DNA from: a virus | Taxonomy: Duplodnaviria > Caudoviricetes | DNA length: 64,000 nucleotides | Reading direction: 5' to 3' (one strand) | IMG/VR virus record: IMGVR_UViG_3300028595_000011 | Location: 451-64,450 of that record | Shown here: positions 22,795 to 47,750 of the stretch, piece after piece | How positions within the stretch are numbered: the stretch's first letter is position 1 | Layout of the letters: each line of letters begins with the position of its first letter | Translations under genes and position numbers: made by a program | Notes under the pieces: model-generated | Database searches by the model: none | Seen by the model: the letters and a program-made list of their open reading frames with translations, nothing else | Told to the model about the DNA's origin: nothing

Positions 22795-22800
22795 TTATAA

Positions 22801-23621: not shown

Positions 23622-23634
23622 CCAGGCACTTCCG

Positions 23635-23680
23635 AAAGAAAGGACCGCCGCTCCCAGCAGGATTGCCGGGAGCAGCAGTC
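23635..23680 (-). terminator. Intrinsic terminator
   Basis: 16-bp stem (G:U pairs on - strand) followed by CUUUCUUU. Confidence 0.7.
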
Positions 23681-23688
23681 GATTTAGG

Positions 23689-24126: not shown

Positions 24127-24192
24127 TTTGTATTCCTCCTTGGAATGGTTGGTTAGTCTTAGAACCGAGTTGTTCATTATGCACTCGCTACT

Positions 24193-24762
24193 CTAGCTCT
24201 CCTTTCTAACACCTCCCCTGTTTTCTAGGAGCCACATCGCCTCCCTCAACGCTATTGGATAGTCTTCCCTCGATGACCATACGATGCCCATCCGGGGGAA
24301 GCTGGATTCAATCCATGCCTTGCATAGATCAACCAGCTTGGCCAATGTAGTGCGGAGCATGGCAACCTCTAGCTCCTGTCCATGTTTGGGCGGGGCTGGC
24401 TCTTCGTTAGCCTCATCAACAGCCTCGGCAACAACTGCCCTGGCAAACTTTCTTGCCCTGGTAGATGCTCCCTTCGGTGTCAGCGCACCGCCCCATGACT
24501 TTCCTCGCCACAGCCTACCGTTGTAGATCATAGCGTAATGAGTGAAGTAGTTCTTCGCTTCCTCATTACCCATAAAGATTCGGTCGTTGTGTTTAACAGC
24601 CTGGCTATACACTATGCCATGCTCTGTAAACGTGATGCTCTCAAGCGAGATATCTGAAAGATCCATGCTCATCTTGCCCAGAGCCATCACGTTGCTTCGT
24701 GACAGGCCAGGTCGGAACTTGACAGACCACGGCTCCCAGAAGTAGCTCGCATCAGCAGACAT
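24193..24762 (-). CDS. Hypothetical protein
   Basis: 189-aa ORF, TAATG coupling. Confidence 0.65.
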   Translation of the reverse strand: MSADASYFWEPWSVKFRPGLSRSNVMALGKMSMDLSDISLESITFTEHGIVYSQAVKHNDRIFMGNEEAKNYFTHYAMIYNGRLWRGKSWGGALTPKGASTRARKFARAVVAEAVDEANEEPAPPKHGQELEVAMLRTTLAKLVDLCKAWIESSFPRMGIVWSSREDYPIALREAMWLLENRGGVRKES

Positions 24763-25118
24763 TAGTTCTCCTCACCCTCCGGCACGGTGGAATCAACAAT
24801 CTTCGCAACCATCTTGTTGCTGTTTTGTTCTGTGTATTCCACCATCTCCCTCATTGAATCCCCGTCAACCCCGAGGTTATGAAGGAACAGCATTTGAGCC
24901 AGAAGAATATCATGCCATACCAACCCGACATCCTTGTCGGATGAGGCAGGGAACCACTCAACCATGGATGCCTGACTTGCTGATGCCCCCTTGCCAATGA
25001 AGACAAATACAGCACCATCAATCAGACTTGCATCCTGTTGTTTGGTCATCTCCAAGAATGACTCAAGCATCATTACATATTCTGGTGTTACTTCCATTTT
25101 ACTCCCCGCTTCACTCAT
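24762..25118 (-). CDS. Hypothetical protein
   Basis: ATGA overlap, operon context. Confidence 0.6.
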   Translation of the reverse strand: MSEAGSKMEVTPEYVMMLESFLEMTKQQDASLIDGAVFVFIGKGASASQASMVEWFPASSDKDVGLVWHDILLAQMLFLHNLGVDGDSMREMVEYTEQNSNKMVAKIVDSTVPEGEEN

Positions 25119-26290
25119 GCGATGTTGAATGCCTGCTCAACATTCTGATACATTGAATGCTCTGTCATTGTGAAGGCTTTTGTAATTAGATCAGAGTCGA
25201 TACTCTGAATCACTTTGTCTGTCGGGAATTGAACATCCCCACTCTTTTTGATGATCGACCTTGCTCCAGCCTTCTTCTGTGCAAGAGCATATATGACCCT
25301 CAATGTTTCGTTAACTCCGGCGGAGTCAACACGCAACACACCCATACTGGAGAGTTGTTTTGCAAAGCTTGCGATCTCATCGTTGAACATTGAGTCAATG
25401 TAATCTGCACGATAAGAGTCTGCCATTTTTTCATCGAGGATCTGCATCGGATCTTCATTGAGCCTCAGGATCAACTGTAAGGCGAGGTTATCAGTTGAAA
25501 TTCCTAACTGAAGAAACTCACCAGATGGTGTGATCCTACATCCCAACTTTTTCATCACTTCCGTGTTGACACGCCCTCTAATAAAGTGCTTGCCTCTGTT
25601 GGCAAAGGATGGATTATCAGACATCTTGATCTTGAACACAAGCCCACCTTCATAGCGGACTATCGTGTTGGGTACGTTGTCTTTGATTTGCAGCAACATT
25701 CGAGCCTTGGCTGCGTGGGCAAGGCGATTGATGCTTATCTTAGTAGCCATCGCAAGCGTTGCAGCAGCCCTTACTTCATGGTCATCAATGTGTTCTGCAC
25801 GTATTGATGTGACACAATTACAAGATGGACAACAGTAAATATACTTTACCCCATAATTATCATCTGGCGGAAAAACTGACCCGGCTCGACACGAAGGATT
25901 GATGCACACTCCATATATCAGATCTTCATCCCCGTATCGTCTTTTCAAATTGTATGCCACAAGCTCATCGAATTGTTTGCAATCAAACAATTTTTGATGG
26001 AAGGCGACATACTCGGTTGGTGACATATGCGTTATCGCATTGATGCGTGCGATGTGTTCTCGTCTCTCGTCAAGAGAGCCAGTGAATCCATCTATCCACT
26101 CAATCTCTCTGTCGCCCCTCTGGGCCAGGAGATCAGCAACATCAAGCATGAATCCGCTCGTGTCTGGATGCCACCAGACAATGCCCGTATATTCACTCAG
26201 TGGTTGTTGGTATTCAGACCACCAGTACCACTGAATGGTTTTATGCATCCTCTTCCATCTGCCCCCATTTTCATGGGTTCCATTGTCCAT
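25115..26290 (-). CDS. Hypothetical protein with central Zn ribbon
   Basis: GAAAGGAG RBS; CINPSC..CPSC. Confidence 0.7.
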   Translation of the reverse strand: MDNGTHENGGRWKRMHKTIQWYWWSEYQQPLSEYTGIVWWHPDTSGFMLDVADLLAQRGDREIEWIDGFTGSLDERREHIARINAITHMSPTEYVAFHQKLFDCKQFDELVAYNLKRRYGDEDLIYGVCINPSCRAGSVFPPDDNYGVKYIYCCPSCNCVTSIRAEHIDDHEVRAAATLAMATKISINRLAHAAKARMLLQIKDNVPNTIVRYEGGLVFKIKMSDNPSFANRGKHFIRGRVNTEVMKKLGCRITPSGEFLQLGISTDNLALQLILRLNEDPMQILDEKMADSYRADYIDSMFNDEIASFAKQLSSMGVLRVDSAGVNETLRVIYALAQKKAGARSIIKKSGDVQFPTDKVIQSIDSDLITKAFTMTEHSMYQNVEQAFNIA

Positions 26291-26304
26291 AAACGAACTC
26301 CTTT

Positions 26305-27522
26305 CTATGCGTCTTGTTCACCGAAGTACAGCAGCCCATACTCCTGAACTATTTCCCAGTGATCTTGGATGTATGTCCTTTTGCTCTGACAGAATGGGCA
26401 GAGAACAGCTTTCTCTGTTCCACCACAACTGACCACTTCCCTGGTGTCTACTACACCATCATCTTCATGGAAGTATGAGGCACAGTCAAAGCACATCATG
26501 CCCTGGTCACTCCAGTCTGCCTCTTTTTCCAAGAAACCCCACCCCTGACTCTCAGTCTTGACAATCTTTTTGCTTTGACCTTCTTTGTCAAACAGCTTGT
26601 CAGCCTCGACTGTTGAGTCAGAGTCACAGTTGGGGCATCGGACAATTTCCTTGTAGCCCATGTCCCACTTAATAAGTCTCGATTCACCACGCTCGAAGTA
26701 TCCATGACAATCAACGCAGTAGTAGCTGATGTATTCCTTTGTGTTCTTGTCCTTGTCGGATCGAAGAACCTTCTTTGTTTCGGAACAATCTATACTAACA
26801 GCACACTTGTCCTTGTCGAACGCATTGGTTATTGGGTTTCCAGCAGCGCCACCATATCCATAGGTAGCCTTATTCTTGATCTGGTTTCGATTGTACTTAT
26901 AGTTCTTGCCATAGGTTATGGTCGAAGATTTGTATGGCTTCCAAAGCATATTGGAAAACCACACGTCCTTGTACCCCGACACCTGACCCCATGATCCTTG
27001 GTGCTCATTCACGATGGCAACATCACCGTTGCTATCCATGAACACCAGCTTGTTGCCACCGATGAACTTGCCGAGCATCTTATTGATAACACCAACACCG
27101 TCAAGTGTTTCAGTTGTGATGCCAGCCACAAGGTCTTCATGTAGTGGATGCAGGACATCCAGAATGAATGTTTCCGTGTCGCTAATGTCTTCATCCTTTG
27201 GCACATCAACGCAACTGAGTACCCCGTTGTGTGCCATGTAGACATCTTCGGTTACACCGAATGGATGAGTGTTCTCTGGTCGAACACTGCCGTGAGTTGC
27301 GATGCGAAAGTGGAGAACAACAGGGAGAGACTTGAATCTCTCCTTGCCCATGCGCTTGATGAATCGTTTCATCGAGCGCCATCGCATGAAGCCCTTCTTC
27401 ACATGCAACTCACCATCCTCAGCGAACATCAGGCCAGCGCCGTCGCTATTCTTTTTCCAGCACTGCTTCAGAACATCCATGTCTACATCCACATCAGATG
27501 GCTTGTAGACGATAACGCACAT
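26305..27522 (-). CDS. Class-II (Ntn) glutamine amidotransferase with C-terminal Zn ribbons
   Basis: Cys2 nucleophile, NSDGAG, HFRIATHG, HPF, HNG, SDT motifs. Confidence 0.9.
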   Translation of the reverse strand: MCVIVYKPSDVDVDMDVLKQCWKKNSDGAGLMFAEDGELHVKKGFMRWRSMKRFIKRMGKERFKSLPVVLHFRIATHGSVRPENTHPFGVTEDVYMAHNGVLSCVDVPKDEDISDTETFILDVLHPLHEDLVAGITTETLDGVGVINKMLGKFIGGNKLVFMDSNGDVAIVNEHQGSWGQVSGYKDVWFSNMLWKPYKSSTITYGKNYKYNRNQIKNKATYGYGGAAGNPITNAFDKDKCAVSIDCSETKKVLRSDKDKNTKEYISYYCVDCHGYFERGESRLIKWDMGYKEIVRCPNCDSDSTVEADKLFDKEGQSKKIVKTESQGWGFLEKEADWSDQGMMCFDCASYFHEDDGVVDTREVVSCGGTEKAVLCPFCQSKRTYIQDHWEIVQEYGLLYFGEQDA

Positions 27523-27531
27523 GCAATCTCC

Positions 27532-29046
27532 TTACTCCTCACGCTCAAACGTCAGCACCTCTGTCGTTTGGTTGAGGCATATGAAATTTTTGTAGGCTGC
27601 ACCTCTCTCGTGTACGAAATCAATGAATCTTTCGTACGTCGTGTGGTTGTACCCACAAGTCTTAGTGAAATCGAATAGAGCTTGAAGAAACTCTACGTTG
27701 CCAAAGTATACTGTCGGAGCTAGCGTGCTTCTGAAGATGCGACACTCAACAGTGTTCGAATTGCTCGTGTTGATTGCCGATCCCCTGCCGTGTGGTTGTT
27801 CTCCTCGTTTGGTTCGAGCGATGCTTAACAGTTCCTTGTTATCACCCAAGTTTGTGTTGGCCCACTGTCTCAGTCTTTTGGCCGGTCGCCTTGAGATCCT
27901 TGTGATGAATGCTTCATTCTCCTTGAAGAACTTCATAAACTTCAACAAGTGAAAGTTGGTGAAGGCATCGTTGCTCATGTGGACGTGCATCCCACAGTTC
28001 TCAGCATCATATCCTTTCATCAGCTTTGCGAGATTGAACATGGGTTTAAATGCATCCTCGTTCTTCTTCATCCACTCGTATGTGAATGGATGACTGACCA
28101 ACTCGAACCCATTCCTGATTGATGAGTCACTCTTGCAGTAGAAGAGACCGTTCCCTCCATCCTGCTCACCGAGTTGGATCAGTGCAGATTCACGAGGAAC
28201 ACCCTGACCCTTCGCCATTTCAATCTCAACCTCTGTTCCAAAGAACAGCGCACGTTCATCGAGATTGATCTCGACCTTCCTGAAATCGGGAATAGGTCGA
28301 TGACTGTAGTTCCTTATCTGATAAGCACCAGCAACTCTGTTACCTGCCCTTCTGTAACAATCCGGGCAAATGCCAGTGTTAGCACTTAAGTCCCTGACGT
28401 AACGACACCGCACCTCAAGCGTGCCTCCAGGCACATCACGATATGCATTGCTGCAAGATGTACAAGTGTACATCCTCGACCTCATGACGTTTACGTCAAG
28501 CTCACAAACCATAGTAAGCGCAGCCTCAACTTCAGCAACATCTCTCGATCTTCGCTGACGAATGATCGTGTTAATCTGCTGGGCTGCATGAACTCGACAC
28601 AGCTTTCTACCTTCAACTTCCCACACCCTGGAACGGAGCCGATCACTGTCACACTCGGCGCATGGATTCAGTGTATCCATGCAACTGGGACACCAGAGTT
28701 CTCCATTTGGTGACTCCATCCCCTCGGTTTGTAGTGTCGGCTGATCACATGATGGACAGAAAAAGTATGCGTCATTGAAGCACCTATAACAGAGCCGATT
28801 ACCTTGAAGGTCTCGCCTCATCTGTTCCTGTGCATCTTCGTCTCGCGGTGTAAAGCAGAGCCTTTCACAGCCCTCGGCAGAACACTGCTGAACAGCAGGG
28901 GACCCTATCTCTACACACTCTTTACAGATAGCAGTAGTATCCTGCCAGTCGAAGTACACTGGCGCATGATAATCCCGTGGTCCCATGAAGGTAGACTCGC
29001 ACACACAGCACCTCCACTCACTTCGAGCTTTCGGTACGTGCGACAT
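27532..29046 (-). CDS. COOH-NH2 amidoligase (Amidoligase_2/glutamine-synthetase fold) with multi-Zn-ribbon N-terminus
   Basis: FGTEVEIE..KSDSSI..GFELVSHP..CGMHVH..AIN..TVECRIFR. Confidence 0.85.
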   Translation of the reverse strand: MSHVPKARSEWRCCVCESTFMGPRDYHAPVYFDWQDTTAICKECVEIGSPAVQQCSAEGCERLCFTPRDEDAQEQMRRDLQGNRLCYRCFNDAYFFCPSCDQPTLQTEGMESPNGELWCPSCMDTLNPCAECDSDRLRSRVWEVEGRKLCRVHAAQQINTIIRQRRSRDVAEVEAALTMVCELDVNVMRSRMYTCTSCSNAYRDVPGGTLEVRCRYVRDLSANTGICPDCYRRAGNRVAGAYQIRNYSHRPIPDFRKVEINLDERALFFGTEVEIEMAKGQGVPRESALIQLGEQDGGNGLFYCKSDSSIRNGFELVSHPFTYEWMKKNEDAFKPMFNLAKLMKGYDAENCGMHVHMSNDAFTNFHLLKFMKFFKENEAFITRISRRPAKRLRQWANTNLGDNKELLSIARTKRGEQPHGRGSAINTSNSNTVECRIFRSTLAPTVYFGNVEFLQALFDFTKTCGYNHTTYERFIDFVHERGAAYKNFICLNQTTEVLTFEREE

Positions 29047-29145
29047 TCATTCTCCTTTCTGCAACGTCTCATTCATTTCCCGCTGATGAGTGCGTTGTCT
29101 CAATACTCGGCACAGTATGGTGCCTGTCTCAATTGAATAGCTTCC

Positions 29146-29487
29146 TTACTTCCACCGACACAGTGGAGGAGCGGCAATGTCTTCACTTGTCTTGCTTGGT
29201 AGTAGCTGGTCGTCTGTCTGTATGCCCTCCACTCTAAAGGGCAAGTCCCCCTCCCACGCGGACACGTAGTTGCATGGCAAGCCGTCGATGACATCGAGTC
29301 TTACCAATCGGCAGCCAGCCTTTCGTAGCGTTTCCCAAGAGAAACCAAGGAGAATTTCCGCAACTTCAATGCAGGTAACACCACTATCACTGAGTGTCTG
29401 CTCAAAGAATGCCCACTCGGTTTCAGATATCACCTGAACCACACCCCACATCATGCCCTTGAACTTGTCATCGAACTGATTGCTCAT
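29146..29487 (-). CDS. Hypothetical protein
   Basis: ORF in operon. Confidence 0.55.
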   Translation of the reverse strand: MSNQFDDKFKGMMWGVVQVISETEWAFFEQTLSDSGVTCIEVAEILLGFSWETLRKAGCRLVRLDVIDGLPCNYVSAWEGDLPFRVEGIQTDDQLLPSKTSEDIAAPPLCRWK

Positions 29488-29490
29488 TGG

Positions 29491-29730
29491 CTAGTCCAGT
29501 TCGAGCCATGCCCGTGTTTCATCCGATGCTTCCCAGGCATCAAAGGTCTGGGTTGTTTCTTGATAGACATTGAATGCCATAAAGAATCCACAAGCTAAGC
29601 CATCAGCTATGCAGTACAGCATCAGCCAGAGGCGACGGCCACGCTTCCCTTCCCTGGTGATAACCCAGTCATAGAAGCAGCGAAGCATCTTCATTGTCTT
29701 GAAATCAAGACGTTCGATGTACCGATACAT
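29491..29730 (-). CDS. Hypothetical protein
   Basis: AGAAAGGAGG RBS. Confidence 0.6.
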   Translation of the reverse strand: MYRYIERLDFKTMKMLRCFYDWVITREGKRGRRLWLMLYCIADGLACGFFMAFNVYQETTQTFDAWEASDETRAWLELD

Positions 29731-29742
29731 AGCGCCTCCTTT

Positions 29743-30069
29743 CTAAGTTGGTATGTTGCGCTTGATTCGGGAGAGCTTTGCCTTCAGTGGCCTCACGCCA
29801 CCAATCCTCTTCATTTCTGTGTAGCACGTGTGACAGATATACGCACCATGATCGAGATTGATTATTAAATCCAGCTTCCAGTCTGCATCTCGACCACACC
29901 AGTTCCTGTCTGCTGAATTTTCAGTCGTGTCCCAGTCACTTGCCACCTCGCATACATAGCCCTGACCAATCGGGTGCCACTCAAAAAGGTGAGCACCAGA
30001 TTCAACCAACTCTTGTGGTGTTGGCTTGCGTGGTGGCTGGTAGTTTAGACGACGTTCAATGTCTGGCAT
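29743..30069 (-). CDS. Cys-containing small protein ending IKRNIPT
   Basis: AAGGGAG RBS; CHTC. Confidence 0.6.
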   Translation of the reverse strand: MPDIERRLNYQPPRKPTPQELVESGAHLFEWHPIGQGYVCEVASDWDTTENSADRNWCGRDADWKLDLIINLDHGAYICHTCYTEMKRIGGVRPLKAKLSRIKRNIPT

Positions 30070-30084
30070 CTCGTCTCCCTTCTA

Positions 30085-30288
30085 CTACGGTACTTGGTAG
30101 TATTCTTCCCACCAATCTTCATACGCTATGTAGTCAGCCCTCCGAAACGCAGTTCTTATTGACTTGAGCTTCTCAGCCTGGTTGTTGTTGAGGTTTTCGA
30201 GGTACTTGATTCTCTCTTTATACCTCACTGTCACGTACGCCAAAGCCATGCCTTGGAATATGATGCAGCTAATCACAAACAAGTTCAT
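30085..30288 (-). CDS. Small membrane-anchored coiled-coil protein
   Basis: N-terminal hydrophobic helix; AAGGAGG RBS. Confidence 0.6.
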   Translation of the reverse strand: MNLFVISCIIFQGMALAYVTVRYKERIKYLENLNNNQAEKLKSIRTAFRRADYIAYEDWWEEYYQVP

Positions 30289-30566
30289 GGCAGCCTCCTT
30301 TTGATTGCGTTATCAGTAATCATTGCCCTTACTCTTGGCAATCTTAGAAAGCACTCTTCGCACAGCCACTGAACTGGCTGACTCCTATGTACCCTGCGAT
30401 AGTTAGCAACATTCGAATCTATCCAATCTTGCTCTTCAGCATTGAACCCCTCGCACAGTTGATCCTCTTCAATTGCCCTCTCTTGATCATCATCATTAAG
30501 CCTGTAGAAATCAAAGCGGCAGATGATACCCTCTTCAATGAGTTGCCTCAACCCACGCCTTGGCAT
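30285..30566 (-). CDS. Small Zn-binding protein, tandem paralog A (ends IKRRLP)
   Basis: RQLIEEGIIC..WIDSN..LCEECF. Confidence 0.7.
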   Translation of the reverse strand: MPRRGLRQLIEEGIICRFDFYRLNDDDQERAIEEDQLCEGFNAEEQDWIDSNVANYRRVHRSQPVQWLCEECFLRLPRVRAMITDNAIKRRLP

Positions 30567-30578
30567 AGACTACTCCTT

Positions 30579-30866
30579 TCATGGCAGCTTCCTTTTAATT
30601 GGTTCCATCTTTCGATTGCGAGTGGGCGGCAACGCCGTAAAGCAGTCCGCACATAGATATCGTACAGGACCTGGACCTGTAGGCAACAGCCCTCTCCTGA
30701 TGTAATGCACACAATTACTGTCTATCCACTCGCCTTCCTCGGCATCCCATGCCTCACATCTAGCGCCAATGTTCTGACCCGAAACGTACTCACTGTATCT
30801 GATTATTCGATAATCCTCTTGGCAAATCTCGCCGTTCTCTATCAGTTGCCTGAAGTCTGCTGGCAT
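30579..30866 (-). CDS. Small Zn-binding protein, tandem paralog B (ends IKRKLP)
   Basis: RQLIENGEIC..WIDSN..LCADCF. Confidence 0.7.
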   Translation of the reverse strand: MPADFRQLIENGEICQEDYRIIRYSEYVSGQNIGARCEAWDAEEGEWIDSNCVHYIRRGLLPTGPGPVRYLCADCFTALPPTRNRKMEPIKRKLP

Positions 30867-30869
30867 AGG

Positions 30870-31094
30870 CTACCCCATCACTGCTCTCGATAGCTCATGC
30901 TCACACTGAAGCGGACCACGACCAAGTGACTGGATGTAGATCACTGGCAACCCGTGACCGAATTGCACCTGACTCACACCCCGCACGGATCGAACCCGCT
31001 TCTCGAACTGGGCCTGAGTTTCGTGATTGTCTGGTAGCTCATGCGCTTCAACGAGGAACACGAACGAGCGGCCATTCCGCTTAAGTCCAATCAT
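30870..31094 (-). CDS. Hypothetical protein (MIGLKRNG...)
   Basis: ATGA overlap, GGAAAGGGG RBS. Confidence 0.55.
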   Translation of the reverse strand: MIGLKRNGRSFVFLVEAHELPDNHETQAQFEKRVRSVRGVSQVQFGHGLPVIYIQSLGRGPLQCEHELSRAVMG

Positions 31095-31399
31095 GCTTTG
31101 CCCCTTTCCATGCCATCCTCTATCATTTGCCACTCGATGACACAATACACAGTACATACCCATGGTCCACACTGAGCTTCATACATCAGTGCCGAGCCAT
31201 CTGTGTAGCTTCGCCCGACTATCGTCAGGGGTCTGCTATCAGCACAGTGAATCTCACGCTGAAGCTTAACGAAATCCCTGGCCCATGCAGTGGCACGAGT
31301 CAGCGATGGGTAGGCACGCATGTCACTGAAGAGATAGTGCCTGTCCTCATCGTCAACGTGACCAGGAACACACACAAATGTGACAATCTCCTCGCTCAT
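31091..31399 (-). CDS. Hypothetical protein (MSEEIVTF...)
   Basis: AGAAAGGAGG RBS. Confidence 0.6.
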   Translation of the reverse strand: MSEEIVTFVCVPGHVDDEDRHYLFSDMRAYPSLTRATAWARDFVKLQREIHCADSRPLTIVGRSYTDGSALMYEAQCGPWVCTVYCVIEWQMIEDGMERGKA

Positions 31400-31500
31400 G
31401 TGTCCTCCTTTCTGGAACATGAGTTCCAAGCAGCCATCCCACCAGACCCGCATCCTTACCTGATGCTCGGTCTGGCTGCGCACGGGAAGGCTGCTTGCAA
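31400..31500 (-). promoter_or_regulatory. Structured leader: long interrupted stem plus hairpin abutting the SD
   Basis: CAAGCAGCC/GGCTGCTTG, CCAGACC/GGTCTGG, GCATC/GATGC nested; then GGAAC-TCAT-GTTCC-AGAAAGGAGG. Confidence 0.6.
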
Positions 31501-31545
31501 CCCACGCAGGGCTGCTAGTTCCAGTAGTCTGGATCGACTACTGCC

Positions 31546-31842
31546 TCAGCTATTGCCACGATCACCACAGCTACAGCCACAGCCACCAGTACAGCGGTCA
31601 TTAACATCTGCTGTCTCCTTCCAGTCCACAAGCTTGACGGCCCCCTCATTGCTGTTGTAGTACATGATGCTTGGATACTTATTCAGATCGCCATTGTGTC
31701 CGATATACCAGTCCTTTTCGCCATCCTCGAACTTGATGTTGATAGACAGCGGACGCCTGGGGTCGTTGCTGTGGTATATTGCAACATGTATACCAGTTGG
31801 CTTGATCTCAATCCTCGGCTGCCCCTCGATGTTGATCGACAT
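31546..31842 (-). CDS. Hypothetical protein with Cys-rich tail
   Basis: AAGGAGG RBS. Confidence 0.6.
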   Translation of the reverse strand: MSINIEGQPRIEIKPTGIHVAIYHSNDPRRPLSINIKFEDGEKDWYIGHNGDLNKYPSIMYYNSNEGAVKLVDWKETADVNDRCTGGCGCSCGDRGNS

Positions 31843-32080
31843 CAGTCCTCCTTCCTGCGCCGGTTGGCCCTACTCCCCATCCTTGCTCAGTCTTCTCGAT
31901 CTGCTGGATCAGGTTACGACCAACCATCCACCCGGTCACCCACACAACGCTTTCCGCAACAAACCGACCATCAGGGTCCAGCATGTTGCGTATGGCTTCT
32001 TTGTCATCAATGTGTTGGTTGCATAACTTTCTCAGACGTTTGACTTCTTCCTGAAGCTCCGCTTTGGTTTTACCTGCCAT
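31808..32080 (-). CDS. Hypothetical protein (MAGKTKAELQEE...)
   Basis: AAAGGTGA RBS. Confidence 0.6.
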   Translation of the reverse strand: MAGKTKAELQEEVKRLRKLCNQHIDDKEAIRNMLDPDGRFVAESVVWVTGWMVGRNLIQQIEKTEQGWGVGPTGAGRRTDVDQHRGAAED

Positions 32081-32181
32081 GGTCTCACCTTTCCTTGTCT
32101 CTGGCAAACCAGTCAGCCAGAAGCATGTAGATCAGAAGCCACATGCACACAGTAAGCAATGTGTTTTGCCAATCTCCCATG

Positions 32182-32442
32182 TCATTCCTCCTTCACCCCT
32201 CTTAGCAGAGGCATTTTGTGTGCCTTGATAGTCCAAGACAGCACGTCCATGGCAAAGAAGTCATCAGTGCCAGGGCCTGGGCGAATGTCGGGCCATCTGT
32301 TGTGGAGTATGCTTTGCTCTTGCACCAACCCAATTGCCATTTTGTACATCTGCTCCTTGGCAACACGGCGCGTCGCGCAGAGCACCAGCTTCTCTGATTT
32401 GCCAGTCACATTACGCAGGATCACAGCCCACACATATTGCAT
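32182..32442 (-). CDS. Hypothetical protein
   Basis: AGAAAGGAGG RBS. Confidence 0.6.
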   Translation of the reverse strand: MQYVWAVILRNVTGKSEKLVLCATRRVAKEQMYKMAIGLVQEQSILHNRWPDIRPGPGTDDFFAMDVLSWTIKAHKMPLLRGVKEE

Positions 32443-32480
32443 GGTTCCTCCTTTCTAGTAGGCTAGCACGCCAGCCCACT

Positions 32481-32508
32481 AGAAAAGTGGGGCAGGAAAA
32501 CCTGCCCC
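32481..32508 (-). terminator. Intrinsic terminator
   Basis: GGGGCAGG-TTTT-CCTGCCCC-ACTTTTCT. Confidence 0.6.
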
Positions 32509-32600
32509 GAATGTTGTTACCTTACTGTGTCCACAACCCATACGAGTCCACGAACAACAGCCAATAACAGGGCAAGCAGGATGACATCAACAGTCACTGC

Positions 32601-32831
32601 TTAGACCTGCTCTACGGTAACTTTCAGAAGCTCGGGAACCACAAGCTCGCCATCCTCATCCGAGTCCAACGCTTCGTGGCGAAGGTACAGGGTCCGGACG
32701 TGCGACTTGTTCTGCGCCTTCTTCGTTCCCTTGGCTGTGGTCTCGACGAATCGGACCGCACCCTTGGTCACTTTCTCCGGCGCAAAGAACACGGTTCGGG
32801 CAGCAAAGCCCTCCTCTTTCTTTTCCGGCAT
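32601..32831 (-). CDS. Small beta-rich early protein
   Basis: GGAAAGGAG RBS; EKVTKGAVRFVE..TLYLR..LKVTVE. Confidence 0.7.
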   Translation of the reverse strand: MPEKKEEGFAARTVFFAPEKVTKGAVRFVETTAKGTKKAQNKSHVRTLYLRHEALDSDEDGELVVPELLKVTVEQV

Positions 32832-33020
32832 GATGCTCTCCTTTCCGGGCCGAAGCCCTAGTGTATGTACCTCATGCCATAGGTACTAGGCTGTGCCTGC
32901 CGAGAGACACAGCTAACTACCTACGTAGTCTTGCTTGGGGCAGGTGCCCCTTGATTGCCACCCCCTGTATGTGGCTTCAGCTTATATGCTGAGTGCTAAT
33001 ACCAGGTCTGTCTCTTCACG

Positions 33021-33308
33021 CTAACCTCCGTTTCCAAGCACGCACTCCTCTTTCAACGGGAACCTTTCGAGGTGATCGAAGAGCTGCAATATGATCGGAG
33101 CATCCTTTGGAATGCCGAGATCCGTACGAGCTTTGAGCGACCACTTCATGTTGGTCACGGTGGAGTCGAACTCCTTGCCCGCATCGTTGAGGCTGCGACG
33201 CTTGATGCGTTGCACCTCCATCAGATCTCCATCATTGTTCGGAGCGAACACGATCACACTGTAGCCCCGTGAGTACCTCGGCAATGGCCGATCATGGGGC
33301 TGCTTCAC
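33021..33308 (-). CDS. Hypothetical protein
   Basis: GTG start with AAGGGAGG RBS. Confidence 0.6.
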   Translation of the reverse strand: MKQPHDRPLPRYSRGYSVIVFAPNNDGDLMEVQRIKRRSLNDAGKEFDSTVTNMKWSLKARTDLGIPKDAPIILQLFDHLERFPLKEECVLGNGG

Positions 33309-33320
33309 TTTGCCTCCCTT

Positions 33321-33614
33321 CTACTCCAGCTTGTCGGAGCAGGCGATGATGTTAGCGAACACGGCGTCGAACATCTCCCTTGATCTGAACAACGAGACAG
33401 TGAGCGAGTCCGCTTTCCCGTTTGGCCACTCGGCAATCGCACCGTAGCAGCCTCGCATGGAGGGCGGAAGCGCAAGATCTTCCAGTTGCCAAACACGATA
33501 CGCTGTGTCATCAGCCTCCACGTAGGCTTCTGATTCCACTTCGATGTCTCGCAACTTGGCACAGATCTTTCTGTCCTTCTCGCTGTCCAAATCCAAGTGC
33601 CTTACACTTGGCAT
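33321..33614 (-). CDS. Hypothetical protein (MPSVRHLD...)
   Basis: GGAAAGGAG RBS. Confidence 0.6.
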   Translation of the reverse strand: MPSVRHLDLDSEKDRKICAKLRDIEVESEAYVEADDTAYRVWQLEDLALPPSMRGCYGAIAEWPNGKADSLTVSLFRSREMFDAVFANIIACSDKLE

Positions 33615-33727
33615 GGCAGCACTCCTTTCCGGGCATGAAGCCCAGGCTAGGCTATGACCTAGCATTGCACGTCCGCGCTGCGATAGTGTTGGCGCTCGTG
33701 CCTTTCACGCATAGCCTAGCTCACGCT

Positions 33728-33925
33728 TCACGCTTCGTTGTCTACCCGCTGCTCTGCGAGTCTGCGACGTTCCACTAACGTCCCATCGTTGGCGTCCATG
33801 TGAGCCATAAGCTCACGGATACGAAGCTCACGAGCCGATAGCTCGTTGCGCTCACTGATGTGAGCTTGAAGAGCTTGCCAATGGGCGTCAGTGCGTACGG
33901 ATACACTGTATCCTCTGCACTTCAT
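33728..33925 (-). CDS. Hypothetical protein
   Basis: GAAGGGAGA RBS. Confidence 0.55.
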   Translation of the reverse strand: MKCRGYSVSVRTDAHWQALQAHISERNELSARELRIRELMAHMDANDGTLVERRRLAEQRVDNEA

Positions 33926-33945
33926 AGCCGTTCTCCCTTCTAGCG

Positions 33946-34092
33946 TTAGTCAGTACAGAACCAACGGCGCTTCACATTGCTGTGGTAGATTTGCTGTGCT
34001 CGCTCGAAGTTCACGCTGATAACAATGTACTGTTTGCCACAGCGTGCACACTGCACATTCACCTTGTACCCACGGGGCCATTTGAATCCCAT
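33946..34092 (-). CDS. 48-aa protein MGFKWPRGYKVNVQCARCG... (not in track)
   Basis: GAAAGGAG RBS; preferred over track ORF 33950..34144. Confidence 0.55.
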   Translation of the reverse strand: MGFKWPRGYKVNVQCARCGKQYIVISVNFERAQQIYHSNVKRRWFCTD

Positions 34093-34140
34093 GCTGCACT
34101 CCTTTCGATAGGTTCACACCCAACGAGGGTGCAGCCCTCG

Positions 34141-34830
34141 TCATTTGATTCCATGAATGTGCTCAAGAGCATGAAGAGCTTGACGCTCGCTCTTGACACG
34201 GCGGATGATGATACTTTTGGAGAACTCGCCATTGCTGACTTGGATTGTGGCGTCATGGAATTTGGTGACGCCGATCTTGGTCATGGTGACACGCTTTACG
34301 CGCCACGTCTCAGGGCTTGAGTCCACCACCTTGGCAGCGCGCTGCGTCATGTCCACAGTTGGAGCATCAACGCTGTGCTTATTCTTGATTCCGGGAGCGG
34401 TCAGAATGCGGACATTCTTAGCTTCACCGGGATTGTCCTTCTTAGCCTGCTCACGCTTCACCTTCTCGACGGCCTTCAGTGCTTCACCGTTCTCAAAGTT
34501 AGCAATGGGAGCGATGTGGCAGCCAGGGCCGAATGGCAAGGCGGGAGCCTGCTTATGCCGCTTTTTGCCCGTCCGCTTTTTCAAGCGCGAATCCTTGACT
34601 TCAACTGTGGGCAACTCAATCTCGTACGGCCGGAATGGAAATCCAGGGTCCACACGTACTGTATGAGTCCCGACCACCTTGAATGTCAAGATTTCGGTGA
34701 CATTCTCAACAGCTTGGGTCATCCGGTGCAAGCGATTGACTCTGGAAAACCGCGAGCGATTCCCTCTGCGAGTCTTACGCTGAGTCCCGTCCAGCCTGTC
34801 TCGGGTAGGATTGCTGGTAACGTTTGGCAT
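34141..34830 (-). CDS. Basic hypothetical protein, first gene of the leftward arm
   Basis: 229 aa, K/R-rich, GGAGAGG RBS. Confidence 0.65.
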   Translation of the reverse strand: MPNVTSNPTRDRLDGTQRKTRRGNRSRFSRVNRLHRMTQAVENVTEILTFKVVGTHTVRVDPGFPFRPYEIELPTVEVKDSRLKKRTGKKRHKQAPALPFGPGCHIAPIANFENGEALKAVEKVKREQAKKDNPGEAKNVRILTAPGIKNKHSVDAPTVDMTQRAAKVVDSSPETWRVKRVTMTKIGVTKFHDATIQVSNGEFSKSIIIRRVKSERQALHALEHIHGIK

Positions 34831-35105
34831 AAGCCTCTCCGTTTCCAGGGTCGTACCCTCGTTGGCTATGAACCCATCTTCTACTTACCGTGCAGCATTC
34901 TCCTCTGCACCCCTGTCTTTCAGCGTCCATCTCCCTAGGTAGCCTGCTTACTCTGGTACAGTGTGCACCATTTCAGTATCTTCTGGCTCCATCGCAGTCT
35001 CCGGATGGCTGGCCGATCCCTGCTGGCTGTCTCCTCCCGTTGTGGAGGGGTCCAGCGGTCAACCATAGTTTGGGGTCGAGTAGGGTTTCACACCACAAAA
35101 CGGCG

Positions 35106-35324
35106 TAAGTACCTTTGTTTTCAGAAGGTTACAAACGTGCTAATTTTTTAGCACCTCGTGTCCAGCGGAGTTAAGTTGCTGCAAACAAAGGAGTTAAGGC
35201 TAGATACCCATCCGGTCACGGATTTTTTTCTCGCGTATATAATGTCAGCCGCTGTCCAGGGTCCGATAATAACGATTATGTAAACCTGAGTCGTGCTGCT
35301 AAGTCGTTTAAAATCAACAACATC
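35106..35324. promoter_or_regulatory. Three IHF-like quasi-palindromic sites
   Basis: TAAGT-initiated ~25-bp units at 35106-35131, 35172-35196, 35300-35324 resembling overlapping inverted WATCAANNNNTTR. Confidence 0.45.
35259..35286 (+). other. dif-like XerC/XerD recombination site
   Basis: GGGTCCGATAA-TAACGA-TTATGTAAACC: 11-6-11 geometry with ATAA/TTAT inner ends. Confidence 0.7.
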
Positions 35325-35692
35325 ACGAAAATCGGCGCTGAGAAGCTGTCTCGCAGGACGGCGGATGCGGCGCGCACAATATAACAGTCAGGCCGGGAGG
35401 GGGTTCGGCTTCGCCGTGCCTTGCCCCTCCTTTAGTACCCTCCCCAAAATGCCGAATCAAAAAATTGAGAAAACCTCCATTTGACACAAACTCATGTATA
35501 GTAGGGTGTTAGGGTAGGAACTAGAATACCCCTCTCGCTGCTCAGATGGCTCTGTACGGGCGCGTAGGCGTGTACGCGGGATAATGCTCGCGTGGAGCTA
35601 CGTACGCGCACCACGGCGCGTGTGAAGCTGTGGTTCCCGTTTTGTGGACAAAAGTGGGGGGTGGGACCGATGATGATGGTGGGAGGTGCGGC

Positions 35693-35935
35693 ATGATCCG
35701 AGTAACGGTAGAGGTGATTCCCTTTGGGGAAGAGAAGAGGAAGAGAACCATTGGTACGATGAAGATTGTGAACGATGGGGAGGGGAACGTGTGGGTTGGT
35801 GATTACGACGTGCACGTAGAGGATGAGGCGCGGGAGGTGACGGGGAAGTACAAGGATTTCAAGATAAGGAGCTTCAATCGTTCTGGTGGCTTCTGGCGGC
35901 TTATAGGTGCTGCTATTGAGGGGATGGAGAAATGA
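35693..35935 (+). CDS. Hypothetical protein (MIRVTVEVIPFG...)
   Basis: GGAGGTG RBS. Confidence 0.65.
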   Translation: MIRVTVEVIPFGEEKRKRTIGTMKIVNDGEGNVWVGDYDVHVEDEAREVTGKYKDFKIRSFNRSGGFWRLIGAAIEGMEK

Positions 35936-36099
35936 TCTTAGACATTCTTGCGTTGGTGATCCTGGTGATTCTTTCGGGACTGGTTTTGTTACTCTTGTTG
36001 TCATGGGCTGCGGAAGACCCGGATGGTTGCGGGGCTGCATTTATTGTTCTTGCTCTTGTGATGGCTTTCTTATGGGCTATTTATCGTCTGGGTGGATAA
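35932..36099 (+). CDS. Small two-TM membrane protein (not in track)
   Basis: ATGA overlap; MILDILALVILV... Confidence 0.55.
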   Translation: MILDILALVILVILSGLVLLLLLSWAAEDPDGCGAAFIVLALVMAFLWAIYRLGG

Positions 36100-36149
36100 T
36101 AATGTTATACATGGTATTCAATTGCACTGGATTAGAAGGGGAGGATGAT

Positions 36150-36344
36150 ATGGGTAAAGAGAAGCGTCCGGTAAACGTAAACATGGACATGAGTATGTAC
36201 GAGGAGATTTGCGTAGAGGTGGAGGAGATGAACGATAACTTGAAGAGCATGAATATTCCTACGCGGGTGAGCGTGCACGGGTTTATCATTGGTGCGATTC
36301 GGGAGAAGCTGGAAAGGCTTGAGGATATGGAGAGGGTGAAATGA
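36150..36344 (+). CDS. Ribbon-helix-helix (Arc/CopG-like) regulator
   Basis: RPVNVNMD beta strand plus two helices (SVHGFIIGAIREKL); GGAGG RBS. Confidence 0.6.
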   Translation: MGKEKRPVNVNMDMSMYEEICVEVEEMNDNLKSMNIPTRVSVHGFIIGAIREKLERLEDMERVK

Positions 36345-36562
36345 CTACACTGGAAAATTTGAAAGAGCTTGTTGAGGCGCTGAAAGAGGCAGATACGCTC
36401 ATGTACGCGGTAGAGCGTGATGCGAAGGTGAGTTCTTGGCCGCATCAGAACAGGGCTATTATGGATCTGGTTGATAGGAATATTGATTTTTTGCATAAGA
36501 TTATGAAGAAGCTAGACCTGATTTATGTAGAGCATTCCAAGGATCACCGGACGGGGCAGTGA
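36341..36562 (+). CDS. Hypothetical protein
   Basis: ATGA overlap. Confidence 0.6.
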   Translation: MTTLENLKELVEALKEADTLMYAVERDAKVSSWPHQNRAIMDLVDRNIDFLHKIMKKLDLIYVEHSKDHRTGQ

Positions 36563-36727
36563 GCGCTTTACAGTTAATACACTGCATAGTTAGTTTTATT
36601 AGTTTCGTTAGTTGCGTTAGTTAGTGTGCTTTTTTTTCAGGGTGGAAAAAGTTACACCCGATTTGTCCACTTGACATCGGTCCCGAGGTCGGACATCCGA
36701 ATTCGGACACACGAATTGAATGAGTAG

Positions 36728-36756
36728 TTGACACGCTACGTAACGTTATGTATCGT
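36728..36756 (+). promoter_or_regulatory. Sigma70-type promoter of the replication initiator
   Basis: TTGACA-17 nt-TATCGT; spacer holds the TAACGTTA palindrome. Confidence 0.65.
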
Positions 36757-36773
36757 TAGTAGCGGAGGATTAA

Positions 36774-37226
36774 ATGAATACATACGGAAAGATTTGGAAA
36801 AGCATGTTTGAGGGTTCCCTTTATGGTAAGGGGGCTGTAGTACAGGCGTTGATGGCGTATTCCATTGCGTGTGCAGACAAGAACGATCTCCTTGAATTGA
36901 ATTCTAGTTTGTTGGCAAACACGATAGGGTGTGACAAGAAGGAGGTTGATGCTGCAATTGAGTTCCTAACGTCTCCTGATGAGAACTCACGTTCTAAGGA
37001 GGAGGGTGGCAGGAGACTGATTCACCGGGATGGATTCACATATTTCGTAGTTAACAGGAAGTTCTATTCCTCTGCTACGAGTGACGATGACTACCGAAGG
37101 AACTGCAGGATTCGACAGAGGCGTCGCCGGTACAGGCTGTGGTGTGAGGAAAATGGGGAGAAGTTTTCTGAAGAGAAGTTTCAATTCAAAGACAGGGACT
37201 CCTTTCCGCAGGACTGGAAGAAGTAG
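36774..37226 (+). CDS. Phage replication initiator, N-terminal wHTH part
   Basis: YGKIWKSMFEGSL..AIEFLTSPDENSRS..GRRL..VVN..RIRQRRRR pattern of replisome-organiser N-domains. Confidence 0.7.
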   Translation: MNTYGKIWKSMFEGSLYGKGAVVQALMAYSIACADKNDLLELNSSLLANTIGCDKKEVDAAIEFLTSPDENSRSKEEGGRRLIHRDGFTYFVVNRKFYSSATSDDDYRRNCRIRQRRRRYRLWCEENGEKFSEEKFQFKDRDSFPQDWKK

Positions 37227-37330
37227 CGTGTCGTCACGTTACGTCACCCCATATAGATATAGATATAAATATACTGTTAGTATTTGTTAGTACGGTTACT
37301 GAATACATGCAGTACTTAACCAGTATTTAG
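37227..37330. other. Putative replication origin (iteron-like plus AT-rich)
   Basis: GTCACGTTACGTCAC, ATAGATATAGATATAAATATA, GTTAGTA repeats. Confidence 0.45.
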
Positions 37331-37338
37331 GAGGAGCG

Positions 37339-37533
37339 ATGCTGCTAACGATTCTGTGTGCTTTGTATATTGTCGTTTCAGGGGGCGTTTTTGCGTACAT
37401 CGTTAATGATGGTTCAATTGTGGACTACGATGAAATGGGGACTGCGGTGATGCTGGCGTTTCTATGGCCACTCACGGTGCCTATTGCTTTGGTTGGCACT
37501 TTCATTTTGTTGCTAGTAGATAAGTTCAGATGA
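37339..37533 (+). CDS. Small membrane protein
   Basis: Two TM segments, FLWP motif, GGAGG RBS. Confidence 0.6.
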   Translation: MLLTILCALYIVVSGGVFAYIVNDGSIVDYDEMGTAVMLAFLWPLTVPIALVGTFILLLVDKFR

Positions 37534-37544
37534 TGGGAGGAGTG

Positions 37545-37817
37545 ATGCCGTACGTAAAAGATAATCCGCCAACCCGCTCGCAAGTTGTAGAGTGGTGGGC
37601 GTTGAAGGGCTGCGTGGTAGATAGGAAGGTGCTGCAACAGGCAGATTTGTTCATTGAGTGGTACGAGGATAGGGGGTGGAAGGATGCGCGTGGTAAACTG
37701 CTGAAGGTGTGGCGTGCAGCCGCTACCGGGTGGGCGATTCGTGGGAACTTCACACTGACCGCCAAGGCGCAGTTTGCTATGGACGACATCGCGGAGAAGT
37801 ACAATGGGAAACGATAA
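37545..37817 (+). CDS. Stand-alone replication-initiator C-terminal domain
   Basis: PPTRSQV..ADLFIEWYEDRGW..LKVWRAAATGW motif. Confidence 0.6.
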   Translation: MPYVKDNPPTRSQVVEWWALKGCVVDRKVLQQADLFIEWYEDRGWKDARGKLLKVWRAAATGWAIRGNFTLTAKAQFAMDDIAEKYNGKR

Positions 37818-38061
37818 GAAGAGACTGTTGGTGTTGAGCGTTGTGAGGGATAGGCTTAAACACATCAGGGAGAAGGAAGCAGAACTGAAACTCCTTTTGG
37901 AGCACTACAAAGACTACCCAATTGTCCCGGCAGAAAACCTCGGGAAGATGATGGTTGTGATATGCCCACACTGCGGAATCACTGCGTACAATTGCGACGA
38001 GCACCTTCACAGGTGCGGGTGGTGCCAAGGTTGGTACTACTATGCTAAGGTAGAAAAATAA
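37804..38061 (+). CDS. Zn-ribbon protein
   Basis: CPHC..CGWC. Confidence 0.6.
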   Translation: MGNDKKRLLVLSVVRDRLKHIREKEAELKLLLEHYKDYPIVPAENLGKMMVVICPHCGITAYNCDEHLHRCGWCQGWYYYAKVEK

Positions 38062-43231: not shown

Positions 43232-43475
43232 TGAAAAATATGAGGGAGTTAAGGATGGTGAGGCGATTGACATTGACTGGCGCAGTGGAGAAGCTATACG
43301 GTTTTCTTGCTGCGATTGCGGCTTGGTGCATCAAATTAACGTTGTTGCTGCGGGGCCGAAAATTAGAATGAGATTCTACAGGATGGAACGGGACACTCAA
43401 CAGCGAAGGGCAGAGAGGGGCATCATCCTCGAAGGGTATGTGCCTCCTCCAATTGGGCCTGGGGAGTTGAATTAG
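43224..43475 (+). CDS. Hypothetical phage protein (CCDCGLVH)
   Basis: GGAG RBS. Confidence 0.6.
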   Translation: MSDEKYEGVKDGEAIDIDWRSGEAIRFSCCDCGLVHQINVVAAGPKIRMRFYRMERDTQQRRAERGIILEGYVPPPIGPGELN

Positions 43476-44791
43476 TGAGCACACTAGACTCCATTGATAC
43501 AGAAGTGGCCGTGCTTAGCGCGGTCTTTGCTGATCCAGCAACGCTTTGGGATGCCATGTCTATCGTTGAGTCTGACCATTTCAGGGACAGAAGGAATCAG
43601 TATATCTTCAGTGCGCTCAGTAGTTTAGCTACAAATGGAATGCCGTACGACATGTCGGCTGTAAGGACGAAGCTTCGCCAAGATGGAGACATGTTTGTGG
43701 TTACTGAGTCGCACCTGTCTTCTTTGGAGGATCTGTCACCCGACACCACAAACGTTGCATGGTACGCCAACAAAATCAAAGAATCGTTCGTTAGGATTGA
43801 GGCGATCAAAGAAACCAATCGCCTTAAGGCTCAGCTTGAACAAGGTGGAAACTTAAAGGAGATTCTCGATGACCACAGTAAAACGTTGCTTGACCTGCAC
43901 GGCGGTCTTGCCGCTAGATCGGAAGCCGTCCATATCTCGCGCCCAGTCGGAGAGGCAATGGATCTGTTGGCAAAAATGCGTGCTGGAGATATTTCAGGAC
44001 TTGGTGTTCGAACTGGAGTTGGCGTCCTCGACGACAGGTTCAGCTTCTTTGCCCCAAAAAATGTCTACGTTATCTGCGGTGGAGTCTCTGCTGGAAAAAG
44101 CGCTCTCGCAGACCAAATCGCAGACTACGTGGCAGGGAATGGTTCAAATGTCTATGTTTCGTGCCTTGAGATGTCCGCGATGCAACGCGCTCAGCGATTC
44201 ATCTCAAGGAGGGCAAGAGTATCGTTGAAGGCTTGGCAGGCGAAGGACATGTTGAGCAAGGCCGCTGAGGAGAGCCTGCAGAAAGCGGCAGCGGAGTTCA
44301 GGAAGCCGCCCATTTACATTGATGACGCTCGTGGTTTAACGGCGCTCGACATCATGGCGAAGGCTCGGCGGTTTAGAGACACGCACGGTCTCGGCATGCT
44401 CATCATTGATTATCTGCAATTGATGAAGCCGCTGCGTCGTGGTCCACGGGAGCAAGAGGTTGCTGAAATGTCTGGCGCTGTGCTTGATATATCTGGCGAT
44501 CTTGATGTTCCGGTGATCCTTGTGTCGCAGTTATCGAGAACACACCAACACGAGAACAGGGAGCCGGAGCTTCGTGATCTTCGAGAGTCTGGCCGGATTG
44601 AGCAAGACGCCTTTGGTGTTGTTGCCATCTACAGGCCCCACCTTGAAGAGCCTGAGAGCAAGGTCATTGTGTTGAAGAACAGACAGGGTCCGCTTGGTCG
44701 CAGACAGATGCGATTCATTGGAGAACAGGTGCGCTTTGAGGAGATCCAATCTACAGACGTATACTACAAGGAGGCCTTTGGTGGCAATTAA
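43475..44791 (+). CDS. dnaB: Replicative DNA helicase
   Basis: Walker A GGVSAGKS, LEM, IIDYLQL, SQLSR, DLRESGRIEQDA, KNRQGP. Confidence 0.93.
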   Translation: MSTLDSIDTEVAVLSAVFADPATLWDAMSIVESDHFRDRRNQYIFSALSSLATNGMPYDMSAVRTKLRQDGDMFVVTESHLSSLEDLSPDTTNVAWYANKIKESFVRIEAIKETNRLKAQLEQGGNLKEILDDHSKTLLDLHGGLAARSEAVHISRPVGEAMDLLAKMRAGDISGLGVRTGVGVLDDRFSFFAPKNVYVICGGVSAGKSALADQIADYVAGNGSNVYVSCLEMSAMQRAQRFISRRARVSLKAWQAKDMLSKAAEESLQKAAAEFRKPPIYIDDARGLTALDIMAKARRFRDTHGLGMLIIDYLQLMKPLRRGPREQEVAEMSGAVLDISGDLDVPVILVSQLSRTHQHENREPELRDLRESGRIEQDAFGVVAIYRPHLEEPESKVIVLKNRQGPLGRRQMRFIGEQVRFEEIQSTDVYYKEAFGGN

Positions 44792-45608: not shown

Positions 45609-45639
45609 CAATGTATCATTGTTTCGTAGGAGGTCCGTC

Positions 45640-46308
45640 ATGGACGAACAAAAAGCTGTTGAGCTAATGAAGGAACTCGGGGTCAGTTGCGAGATCGGAA
45701 CCGAGACCTACGAAGCAATGCTTGAACATCCGACCGTTGCCGCCTTTATGAAGGGTGAGGTTAGCATGAGCCAGGCTATCTTTGTTGAAGAGTATCTAGC
45801 CAATGGCTTTAATGCTTCTAGGGCAGCCAAGGCTGCCAAATACAGGGCATTCAATAAGGGCGGGTTCTCAAGTATTGGGAGCGTCGTGATGAAGAGCAAG
45901 AGGGTTAAGTCTCTGATTGCCAGGCGCATTACCGAGAGGGCAATGAATGCTAATGAAGTGCTTGATCGCTATAGAGATATTGCTGACGGCACCATCGGTG
46001 CCTTCTTGAGTGACGACTACAGTGCTGTTGATTTAAGGAAGGCTGCCGATGAAAACAAATTGCACTTGCTCAAAGACTTGAAGATTGATTCCGAGGGCAA
46101 CGTGCAAATCAAGATTCGAGACCAGGATCACGCGCTGGATCAGCTTGCGCGATCTCTTGGGGTGTTCGAAAAAGACAACACGTCGAAGCTCCCGCCGGAA
46201 ATCATTGCCCTCCTTGGGCTGTCTCCGCAAGAGCTACAGGCCAGGCAGGATGCGTATAGAGACATGAAGTCCGAGTTGGAGGGCGACAATGCAGCCGATG
46301 CCGGTTAG
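45640..46308 (+). CDS. terS: Terminase small subunit
   Basis: FVEEYL..FNASRAAKAAKY..ALDQLARSLGVF. Confidence 0.85.
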   Translation: MDEQKAVELMKELGVSCEIGTETYEAMLEHPTVAAFMKGEVSMSQAIFVEEYLANGFNASRAAKAAKYRAFNKGGFSSIGSVVMKSKRVKSLIARRITERAMNANEVLDRYRDIADGTIGAFLSDDYSAVDLRKAADENKLHLLKDLKIDSEGNVQIKIRDQDHALDQLARSLGVFEKDNTSKLPPEIIALLGLSPQELQARQDAYRDMKSELEGDNAADAG

Positions 46309-47740: not shown

Positions 47741-47750
47741 GGGAGATTGC

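Follow-up and report, generated by a model that had tools for sequence, protein, structure and literature searches.

The window analysed in this study, meaning the whole stretch of 64,000 nucleotides, corresponds to bases 451-64450 of a viral contig from IMG/VR, 64,450 bp long, which is classed as linear and has a CheckV completeness estimate of 78%. The genes run rightward from 1 to 18341, leftward from 18342 to 34830 and rightward again from 35630 to the window end, and the interval 34831-35629 is free of open reading frames (ORFs) of 100 amino acids or more. The leftward block carries RecT (18825-19871), a RecE-like exonuclease (19868-20818), a glutamine amidotransferase-like gene (26305-27522) and an amidoligase-like gene (27532-29046). 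The second rightward block carries DnaB (43475-44791), the small terminase (45619-46308), the large terminase in two plus-strand ORFs (46289-47035, ATPase-like, and 48521-49417, nuclease-like), the portal (49417-51423), an endolysin (51706-52266), an Rz-like spanin (52503-52928) and the major head protein (54884-56230). The presence of the large terminase in two ORFs could reflect a split gene or an insertion; between them lie an ORF without a match (47051-47740) and one that resembles a DNA-polymerase-exonuclease-like PHROG (47697-48524). A single giant ORFan of 3826 amino acids (6861-18341, plus strand) closes the structural block; it matches nothing in Pfam or PHROG and cannot be recognised as a virion RNA polymerase of the N4 type.

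An earlier note on this DNA had seen no tyrosine or serine recombinase in the window. HMM searches of the whole record agreed, finding neither PF00589 nor PF00239, a result that holds for a record 78% complete, of which the remaining 22% could hold such a gene. The twenty ORFs that flank the 28-bp site described below gave no Pfam match above threshold. Partition, repressor and plasmid-replication families were not recognised among the scanned proteins, which is a weak negative because many of these proteins are ORFans. The label of podophage, which had also been applied, was not confirmed. Judged by database comparison, the phage is a near-singleton. The portal is 25-29% identical to those of four cultured phages, and a megablast of 33000-38000 against phage records gave no match. 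Among the neighbours of the site, a protein of 229 amino acids had no match in viral contigs and one of 145 amino acids had none in metagenome contigs. DnaB matched nine loci in viral contigs, eight of them at 26-28% identity and one, a partial match of 112 residues, at 40%. The major capsid protein matched one viral fragment of 15.6 kb at 69% identity, and this fragment was judged too short to reach the region of the site, since the capsid gene lies about 20 kb away. Thus, no relative covering this region was found in the phage, viral-contig or metagenome searches. The N-terminus of the g36774 product is 25% identical to an ORF beside a dif-like site in another phage record (G045), a resemblance too weak to build on.

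The ORF-free interval is the main non-coding divergent, or strand-switch, region of the phage according to the ORF lists, and measures about 800 nt (34831..35629). Within it, the 28-mer at 35259-35286 lies between a gene that points leftward (34141-34830) and the ORF at 35630, the first that points rightward. The site is therefore outside any ORF of at least 100 amino acids, as had been proposed, and 428 nt of non-coding DNA lie on the side of its XerC-type arm. This DNA contains the repeats GTCCAGCGG (at 35050 and 35160) and GGAGTTAAG (at 35167 and 35190), a 20-nt inverted repeat spanning 35112-35191 and a terminator-like hairpin with a T run at 35210-35229. Predicted RNA folding gave z = -2.0 for 35095-35232 and z = 0.1 for 35250-35445, and an Rfam search returned two sub-threshold snoRNA matches only. 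IHF-like sites had been described at 35106, 35172 and 35300, but none of the three matches WATCAANNNNTTR, which we take to be the IHF consensus, with up to one mismatch. At the same threshold, 3 kb of DNA held four matches against 2.1 expected, one of them perfect (35455-35467).

The 28-mer consists of two imperfectly inverted arms of 11 bp around a centre of 6 bp, which is the geometry of Xer core sites, whose centre may measure up to 8 bp; its reported structure was confirmed on the plus strand. The XerC-type arm is GGGTCCGATAA (35259..35269, plus strand), the central region is TAACGA (35270..35275, plus strand) and the XerD-type arm is TTATGTAAACC (35276..35286, plus strand). As in Xer core sites, the XerD arm is of the TTATGTNAANT type and the XerC arm ends in ATAA, the site is in non-coding DNA and there is one copy in the replicon; a search allowing up to three mismatches found the 28-mer once in the 64,450-bp record. 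The consensus KCSBAKAA-N6-TTATGTHAA, which was built beforehand from three dif sites printed in PMC3025954, had the 28-mer as its sole perfect match in the window, and two matches with up to two mismatches against 0.25 expected. A shorter motif, composed after the 28-mer had been seen, gave one match in the window against 0.04 expected. These motif scans found no second dif-like site in the window that could bound a module, and half-sites were not in excess (CCGATAA, 6 against 4.3 expected; TTATGTAA, 1 against 0.68). A near-palindrome at 36735-36754, directly upstream of the ORF 36774-37226, includes TAACGTTATGTA, a sequence similar to the centre and right arm of the 28-mer; on either strand it departs from the search motif at three positions.

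The 28-mer was compared with dif sequences printed in PMC3025954 and in Table 1 of PMC2731167 (Carnoy & Roten 2009). Among these printed sites the closest is that of Myxococcus xanthus (PMC2731167, Table 1), which agrees at 10 of 11 positions in the left arm and 10 of 11 in the right arm, a total of 20 of 22. The Syntrophus aciditrophicus site from the same table agrees at 8 of 11 positions in the left arm and all 11 in the right (19 of 22). The left and right arms, respectively, agree at 6 and 10 of 11 positions with the B. subtilis dif, at 7 and 8 with the E. coli dif and at 7 (the inner seven) and 8 with the predicted Frankia alni dif. As printed in PMC3025954, the B. subtilis right arm differs from the phage arm at one of 11 positions and the E. 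coli left arm ends in ATAA, both as stated in the earlier note. The centre is less similar, since only between one and three of the six positions of TAACGA agree with the centres of these five printed sites. By its arms, the 28-mer belongs with the dif sites of "delta-proteobacterial" type.

The 19 bases at the inner ends of the arms, GTCCGATAA-N6-TTATGTAAAC, were found in at least 120 genomes of bacteria, with one copy at each locus, against an expectation of about 4 in 596 Gb calculated for uniform base composition. The inner 9 nt of the XerC arm are thus shared without change by at least 120 dif sites from genomes; the full XerC arm is identical in two of the loci (L149 and L173), and both arms are identical in one (L149). 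The centres GATATA, TGTATA, TATATA and CAGGTA account for 68 of the 120 genome sites listed, and 92 of the 120 end in TA. These common centres and TA endings indicate that the 120 listed matches look like chromosomal dif sites. TAACGA was absent both from these 120 sites and from the 64 viral sites sharing the arms that are described below, so that it is private to this phage among sites with these arms, and it agrees with any listed chromosomal centre at no more than 4 of 6 positions. Thus, the comparison of the 28-mer with bacterial dif sites showed arms equal to real chromosomal dif arms and a centre found in none of those listed. Assigned to phyla by their record titles, the 120 genome matches listed comprise about 37 of Acidobacteriota type, 30 Desulfobacterota/"delta", 7 Myxococcota, 15 Ignavibacteria/Bacteroidetes, 13 Bacillota, 3 Fibrobacter and 15 others. 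It had been suggested that the site could identify the host. However, the arms are spread over all six of the groups just named, and a marker common to several phyla cannot pin the host down. The Rz-like spanin points to a diderm host, and the host can be narrowed no further than to a probable diderm of one of these phyla living in salt marsh.

Sites of this type are not confined to the phage studied here. A 17-base pattern, CCGATAA-N6-TTATGTAAAC, was found in at least 119 viral contigs, whereas the same letters reversed matched 20 viral contigs and the two words in swapped order matched five. The 19-base pattern matched 61 viral contigs (64 sites). The 119 viral matches listed include 96 distinct 28-mers with 78 distinct centres, and the GC content of their loci ranges from 0.26 to 0.69. 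A position outside ORFs of at least 100 amino acids was found for 100 of the 119 viral matches listed, against 6 of the 20 control matches, and when measured from stop to stop an intergenic position was found for 54 of the 64 sites with the 19-base pattern. The 64 sites have 53 distinct centres. The four centres most common in chromosomes are present at only five of them, against 68 of the 120 genome sites listed, and 10 of the 64 carry any centre found among the 120 genomes listed.

Packaging genes are frequent neighbours of the viral sites, which were compared as two sets of loci, L011-L129 (119) and L312-L338 (27). A terminase gene lay within 2.5 kb of the site in 46 of the 119 viral loci listed when neighbours were grouped in BLAST clusters. 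The clusters were named by Pfam searches on ten representatives, nine of which belonged to a terminase or packaging family and one of which (from L077) had no match. A blastx check of the same distance gave 48 of the 119 listed, 12 of the 27 additional 19-base matches and none of the 25 control matches. In phages with a small terminase of the GP3_package type, terS and terL flank the site. As a class, the viral sites are intergenic and private-centred, and a terminase gene is often found next to them. In the phage studied here the site is 10.3 kb upstream of terS, and thus its setting is atypical for the class. In addition, one 103-kb record has four dif-type sites within 650 bp (L333:9596-10244), two of them 46 nt apart and with centres that differ. 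The glutamine-amidotransferase-like and amidoligase-like genes of our phage adjoin each other in 25115-29046 (minus strand), and homologues of both lie at 925-2334 of L040, a fragment unrelated to the phage, 3.4 kb from the dif-type site of that fragment.

Some carriers of these sites encode a recombinase of their own. PF00589 was found in 26 of the 119 viral carrier records listed and in 12 of the 27 that are at least 90% complete; among the 15 near-complete carriers without PF00589, one has PF00239. This leaves 14 of the 27 near-complete carriers listed with neither family, and eight of these 14 have direct terminal repeats. Fourteen of the listed carriers are classed as proviruses by IMG/VR, and 12 of the 14 have their own PF00589. 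In 10 of the 14, by arithmetic on the coordinates, neither end of the record lies within 9 kb of the site, which indicates that the site is not the prophage junction there. A further group is formed by eight mosaic phage records (G006, G007, G025, G052, G063, G068, G072 and G119; GC 35-38%), in which the site and its surroundings, about 160-180 nt beyond the XerC arm and about 90 nt beyond the XerD arm, are conserved as a non-coding cassette. The centre is GAATGG, TTATAA or CAATAA and differs between members.

The resemblance of the 28-mer to dif is very unlikely to have arisen by chance, judging from the collection controls, the intergenic place and the identity of the arms to real dif arms. 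The proposal of a dif-type XerC/XerD site is thus supported, both by arms equal to chromosomal dif arms and by a motif that is strongly over-represented and intergenic in viral contigs. A wider doubt is whether the 28-mer is a Xer site at all, as it could be a chance palindrome or the operator of some other phage or host protein that resembles dif. The phage, itself a singleton, has one such site with an atypical centre, and repeats containing GTCCAG nearby (35050, 35160, 35254) could belong to another binding protein. However, 19 fixed bases have a chance expectation of about 5e-7 per 64 kb (arithmetic), the control patterns gave 20 and 5 matches where the motif gave at least 119, and the control matches are mostly coding where the phage 28-mer is intergenic. 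For these reasons a non-Xer origin is considered quite improbable. A site that does bind Xer need not be recombined, and host XerC and XerD may dock on it without recombination and so occlude or time the divergent early promoters. The position of the 28-mer in an early divergent control region agrees with such a role, as does the presence inside it of two -10-like hexamers, GATAAT (plus strand, 35265-35270) and CATAAT (minus strand, 35280-35275). The region as a whole has three promoter-like matches against 0.8 expected, two of which use the inner arm ends as -10 hexamers. This promoter likeness is nevertheless built into the dif consensus, because a dif centre that starts with T and ends with A always yields GATAAT and CATAAT, and so it is not independent evidence. 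There is, moreover, one site only, and half-sites are not in excess. Regulatory docking as the function of the site is therefore held to be unlikely.

The earlier note had offered integration at the host dif as one of two options, by which the phage would enter the host dif through host XerCD and lysogenise without an integrase, in the manner of the integrating elements known as IMEX. In favour of this route, the two arms are complete dif-type arms, no recombinase was found in the record and the habitat is salt marsh. In addition, TAACGA agrees at its first two positions and at its last with the TATATA centres of the Desulfobacterales-type dif (L160, L192), and partial homology of the centre suffices for some IMEX. 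The phage site and the attP sites of CTXphi, VGJphi, TLCphi and the Microviridae and tailless capsid proviruses at dif are alike in that a dif-like site is carried without an integrase. However, the IMEX known so far are small elements of the filamentous, microvirus or tailless capsid kind, whereas the phage is large and tailed and neither an integrated form nor a host junction was found. Four salt marsh metagenome runs hold parts of the stretch in contigs of at least 99% identity, and contigs of two runs bridge the 28-mer intact (record 22, 35207-35420; record 25, 35208-35437). Neither a joint nor a loose end was reported, although these contigs are of low depth and a rare integrated form could escape. 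The 28-mer including its centre had no match in metagenome contigs. Prophage relatives flanked by dif, which had also been suggested, were not found by a portal search of 50 dif-matching genomes and 401 Desulfobacterota. None of the 50 genomes with a matching dif held the portal protein. Two of the 401 from Desulfobacterota had it at about 30% identity, and the sequence retrieved around these two matches, 120 kb and 20 kb long, contained no dif-like site. These two loci have a GC content of 66% and share only the portal and capsid with the phage, one of them DnaB as well. A scan of 68 predicted proteins of the phage revealed no gene of the repressor, antirepressor or Xaf-like kind, and where proviruses carry a site of this type it is mostly at an internal position. 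With no joint or loose end, no prophage relative, no lysogeny gene and a centre unmatched among the 120 genome sites listed, the claim of integration at the host dif was not borne out, and we regard this route as improbable.

The same metagenome runs gave uneven coverage of the region. The X1 and X2 contigs cover about 35.26-39 kb and none cover 31.2-35.0 kb, and no run covers 33.4-35.2 kb. This hole in the contig cover is not interpretable, and so no conclusion about a mosaic boundary or a chimera is drawn from it. The contig with the highest depth (9.7) is one from an RNA library at 35207-35420; such contigs cannot show transcription, strand or starts.

The reading we prefer is that the 28-mer is a genuine Xer core at which the host Xer would recombine phage DNA with phage DNA, in multimer resolution or in cyclisation. 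It is the best supported of the readings considered, and is put forward tentatively, at somewhat less than an even chance. We infer Xer binding, the recombination partner and the outcome of the reaction as follows. XerC would bind the left arm of the 28-mer and XerD the right arm, and the host Xer would join two copies of the phage site on behalf of a phage without its own recombinase. Because the centre TAACGA is private, the productive partner would be another phage copy and not the host dif. Circular dimers or multimers arising from replication and RecE/RecT recombination would thereby be converted to monomers; alternatively, the reaction may close a terminally redundant phage molecule. The support for recombination between phage copies comes from the private centre together with the lack of a lysogeny gene or host junction, and from the internal position of the site in integrase-bearing proviruses together with the recurrence of such sites in complete recombinase-less genomes. 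RecT with the RecE-like exonuclease, the failure to find a recombinase, the single site and the spanin are also consistent with it. Host Xer acting on phage multimers, the other option offered in the earlier note, would fit better than integration at dif. Several points weigh on the other side. Phages that package from concatemers gain little from resolving them, which speaks against resolution, as does the fact that no plasmid maintenance or replication-initiator gene marking a circular resident form was recognised in the scanned proteins. The distance of the site from terS, which sets it apart from the viral class, also argues against recombination between phage copies.

Recombination between phage copies by the host Xer can be set beside several known systems. 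Exploitation of Xer is described, in PMC2731167 among other sources, for plasmids and the gonococcal island as well as for filamentous phages, microviruses and tailless capsid phages. The phage site and the chromosomal dif of delta-proteobacterial type are alike in the 11-6-11 geometry, the arms, the non-coding place and the single copy. However, the chromosomal site is located at the chromosome terminus and the phage site on a phage record, and the phage centre TAACGA is not among the chromosomal centres, most of which end in TA. The polarity that orients FtsK was looked for with the E. coli-type KOPS GGGNAGGG, which occurs 8 times against 7.7 expected and without polarity, although this consensus may not be that of the host. 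The cer site of ColE1 and the psi site of pSC101 offer a closer parallel. They too are located on a foreign replicon without a recombinase and have the host XerCD as their enzyme, and their centres differ from dif so that a sister copy serves as partner; the phage site is likewise private-centred, with the same kind of partner proposed. Both types of site have non-coding DNA on the XerC side. The cer and psi sites require PepA, ArgR or ArcA and accessory sequences of about 180 bp on that side, and the cassette kept in the mosaic phage family (G006 and the others) has a layout similar to that of cer and psi. The carriers differ, since cer and psi are found on plasmids and the phage site on a tailed phage of at least 64 kb in which no plasmid functions were recognised among the scanned proteins, many of them ORFans. 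The job proposed for the phage site is that of loxP in phage P1, where Cre recombines two copies to cyclise terminally redundant DNA and to resolve dimers. P1 encodes its own recombinase, whereas here two copies of the phage site would be recombined by an enzyme of the host to close or monomerise the DNA.

On the basis of the viral collection, this reading may be extended to a class of phages. Tailed phages without a recombinase, infecting hosts of many phyla, may borrow XerCD by means of dif-type sites with private centres and use it as P1 uses Cre and lox to cyclise or monomerise their own DNA, with the site usually beside packaging genes; in the phage studied here the copy would lie instead in the early control region, where Xer binding may gate transcription. 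This generalisation is speculative, and in its full form we consider it possible but doubtful. At the level of titles and abstracts, no description of dif-type sites in tailed phages without a recombinase was found, and at this same level the work on XerD and tailed phages appears to concern Xer-like recombinases encoded by the phages themselves. The known exploiters of host Xer are plasmids (cer, psi) and the small integrating elements (IMEX). If the extended reading is true, large tailed phages without a recombinase would depend on the host Xer, which would be an extra host dependency in phage DNA metabolism, and the dif-type site would provide a new sequence marker for the annotation of phage genomes.
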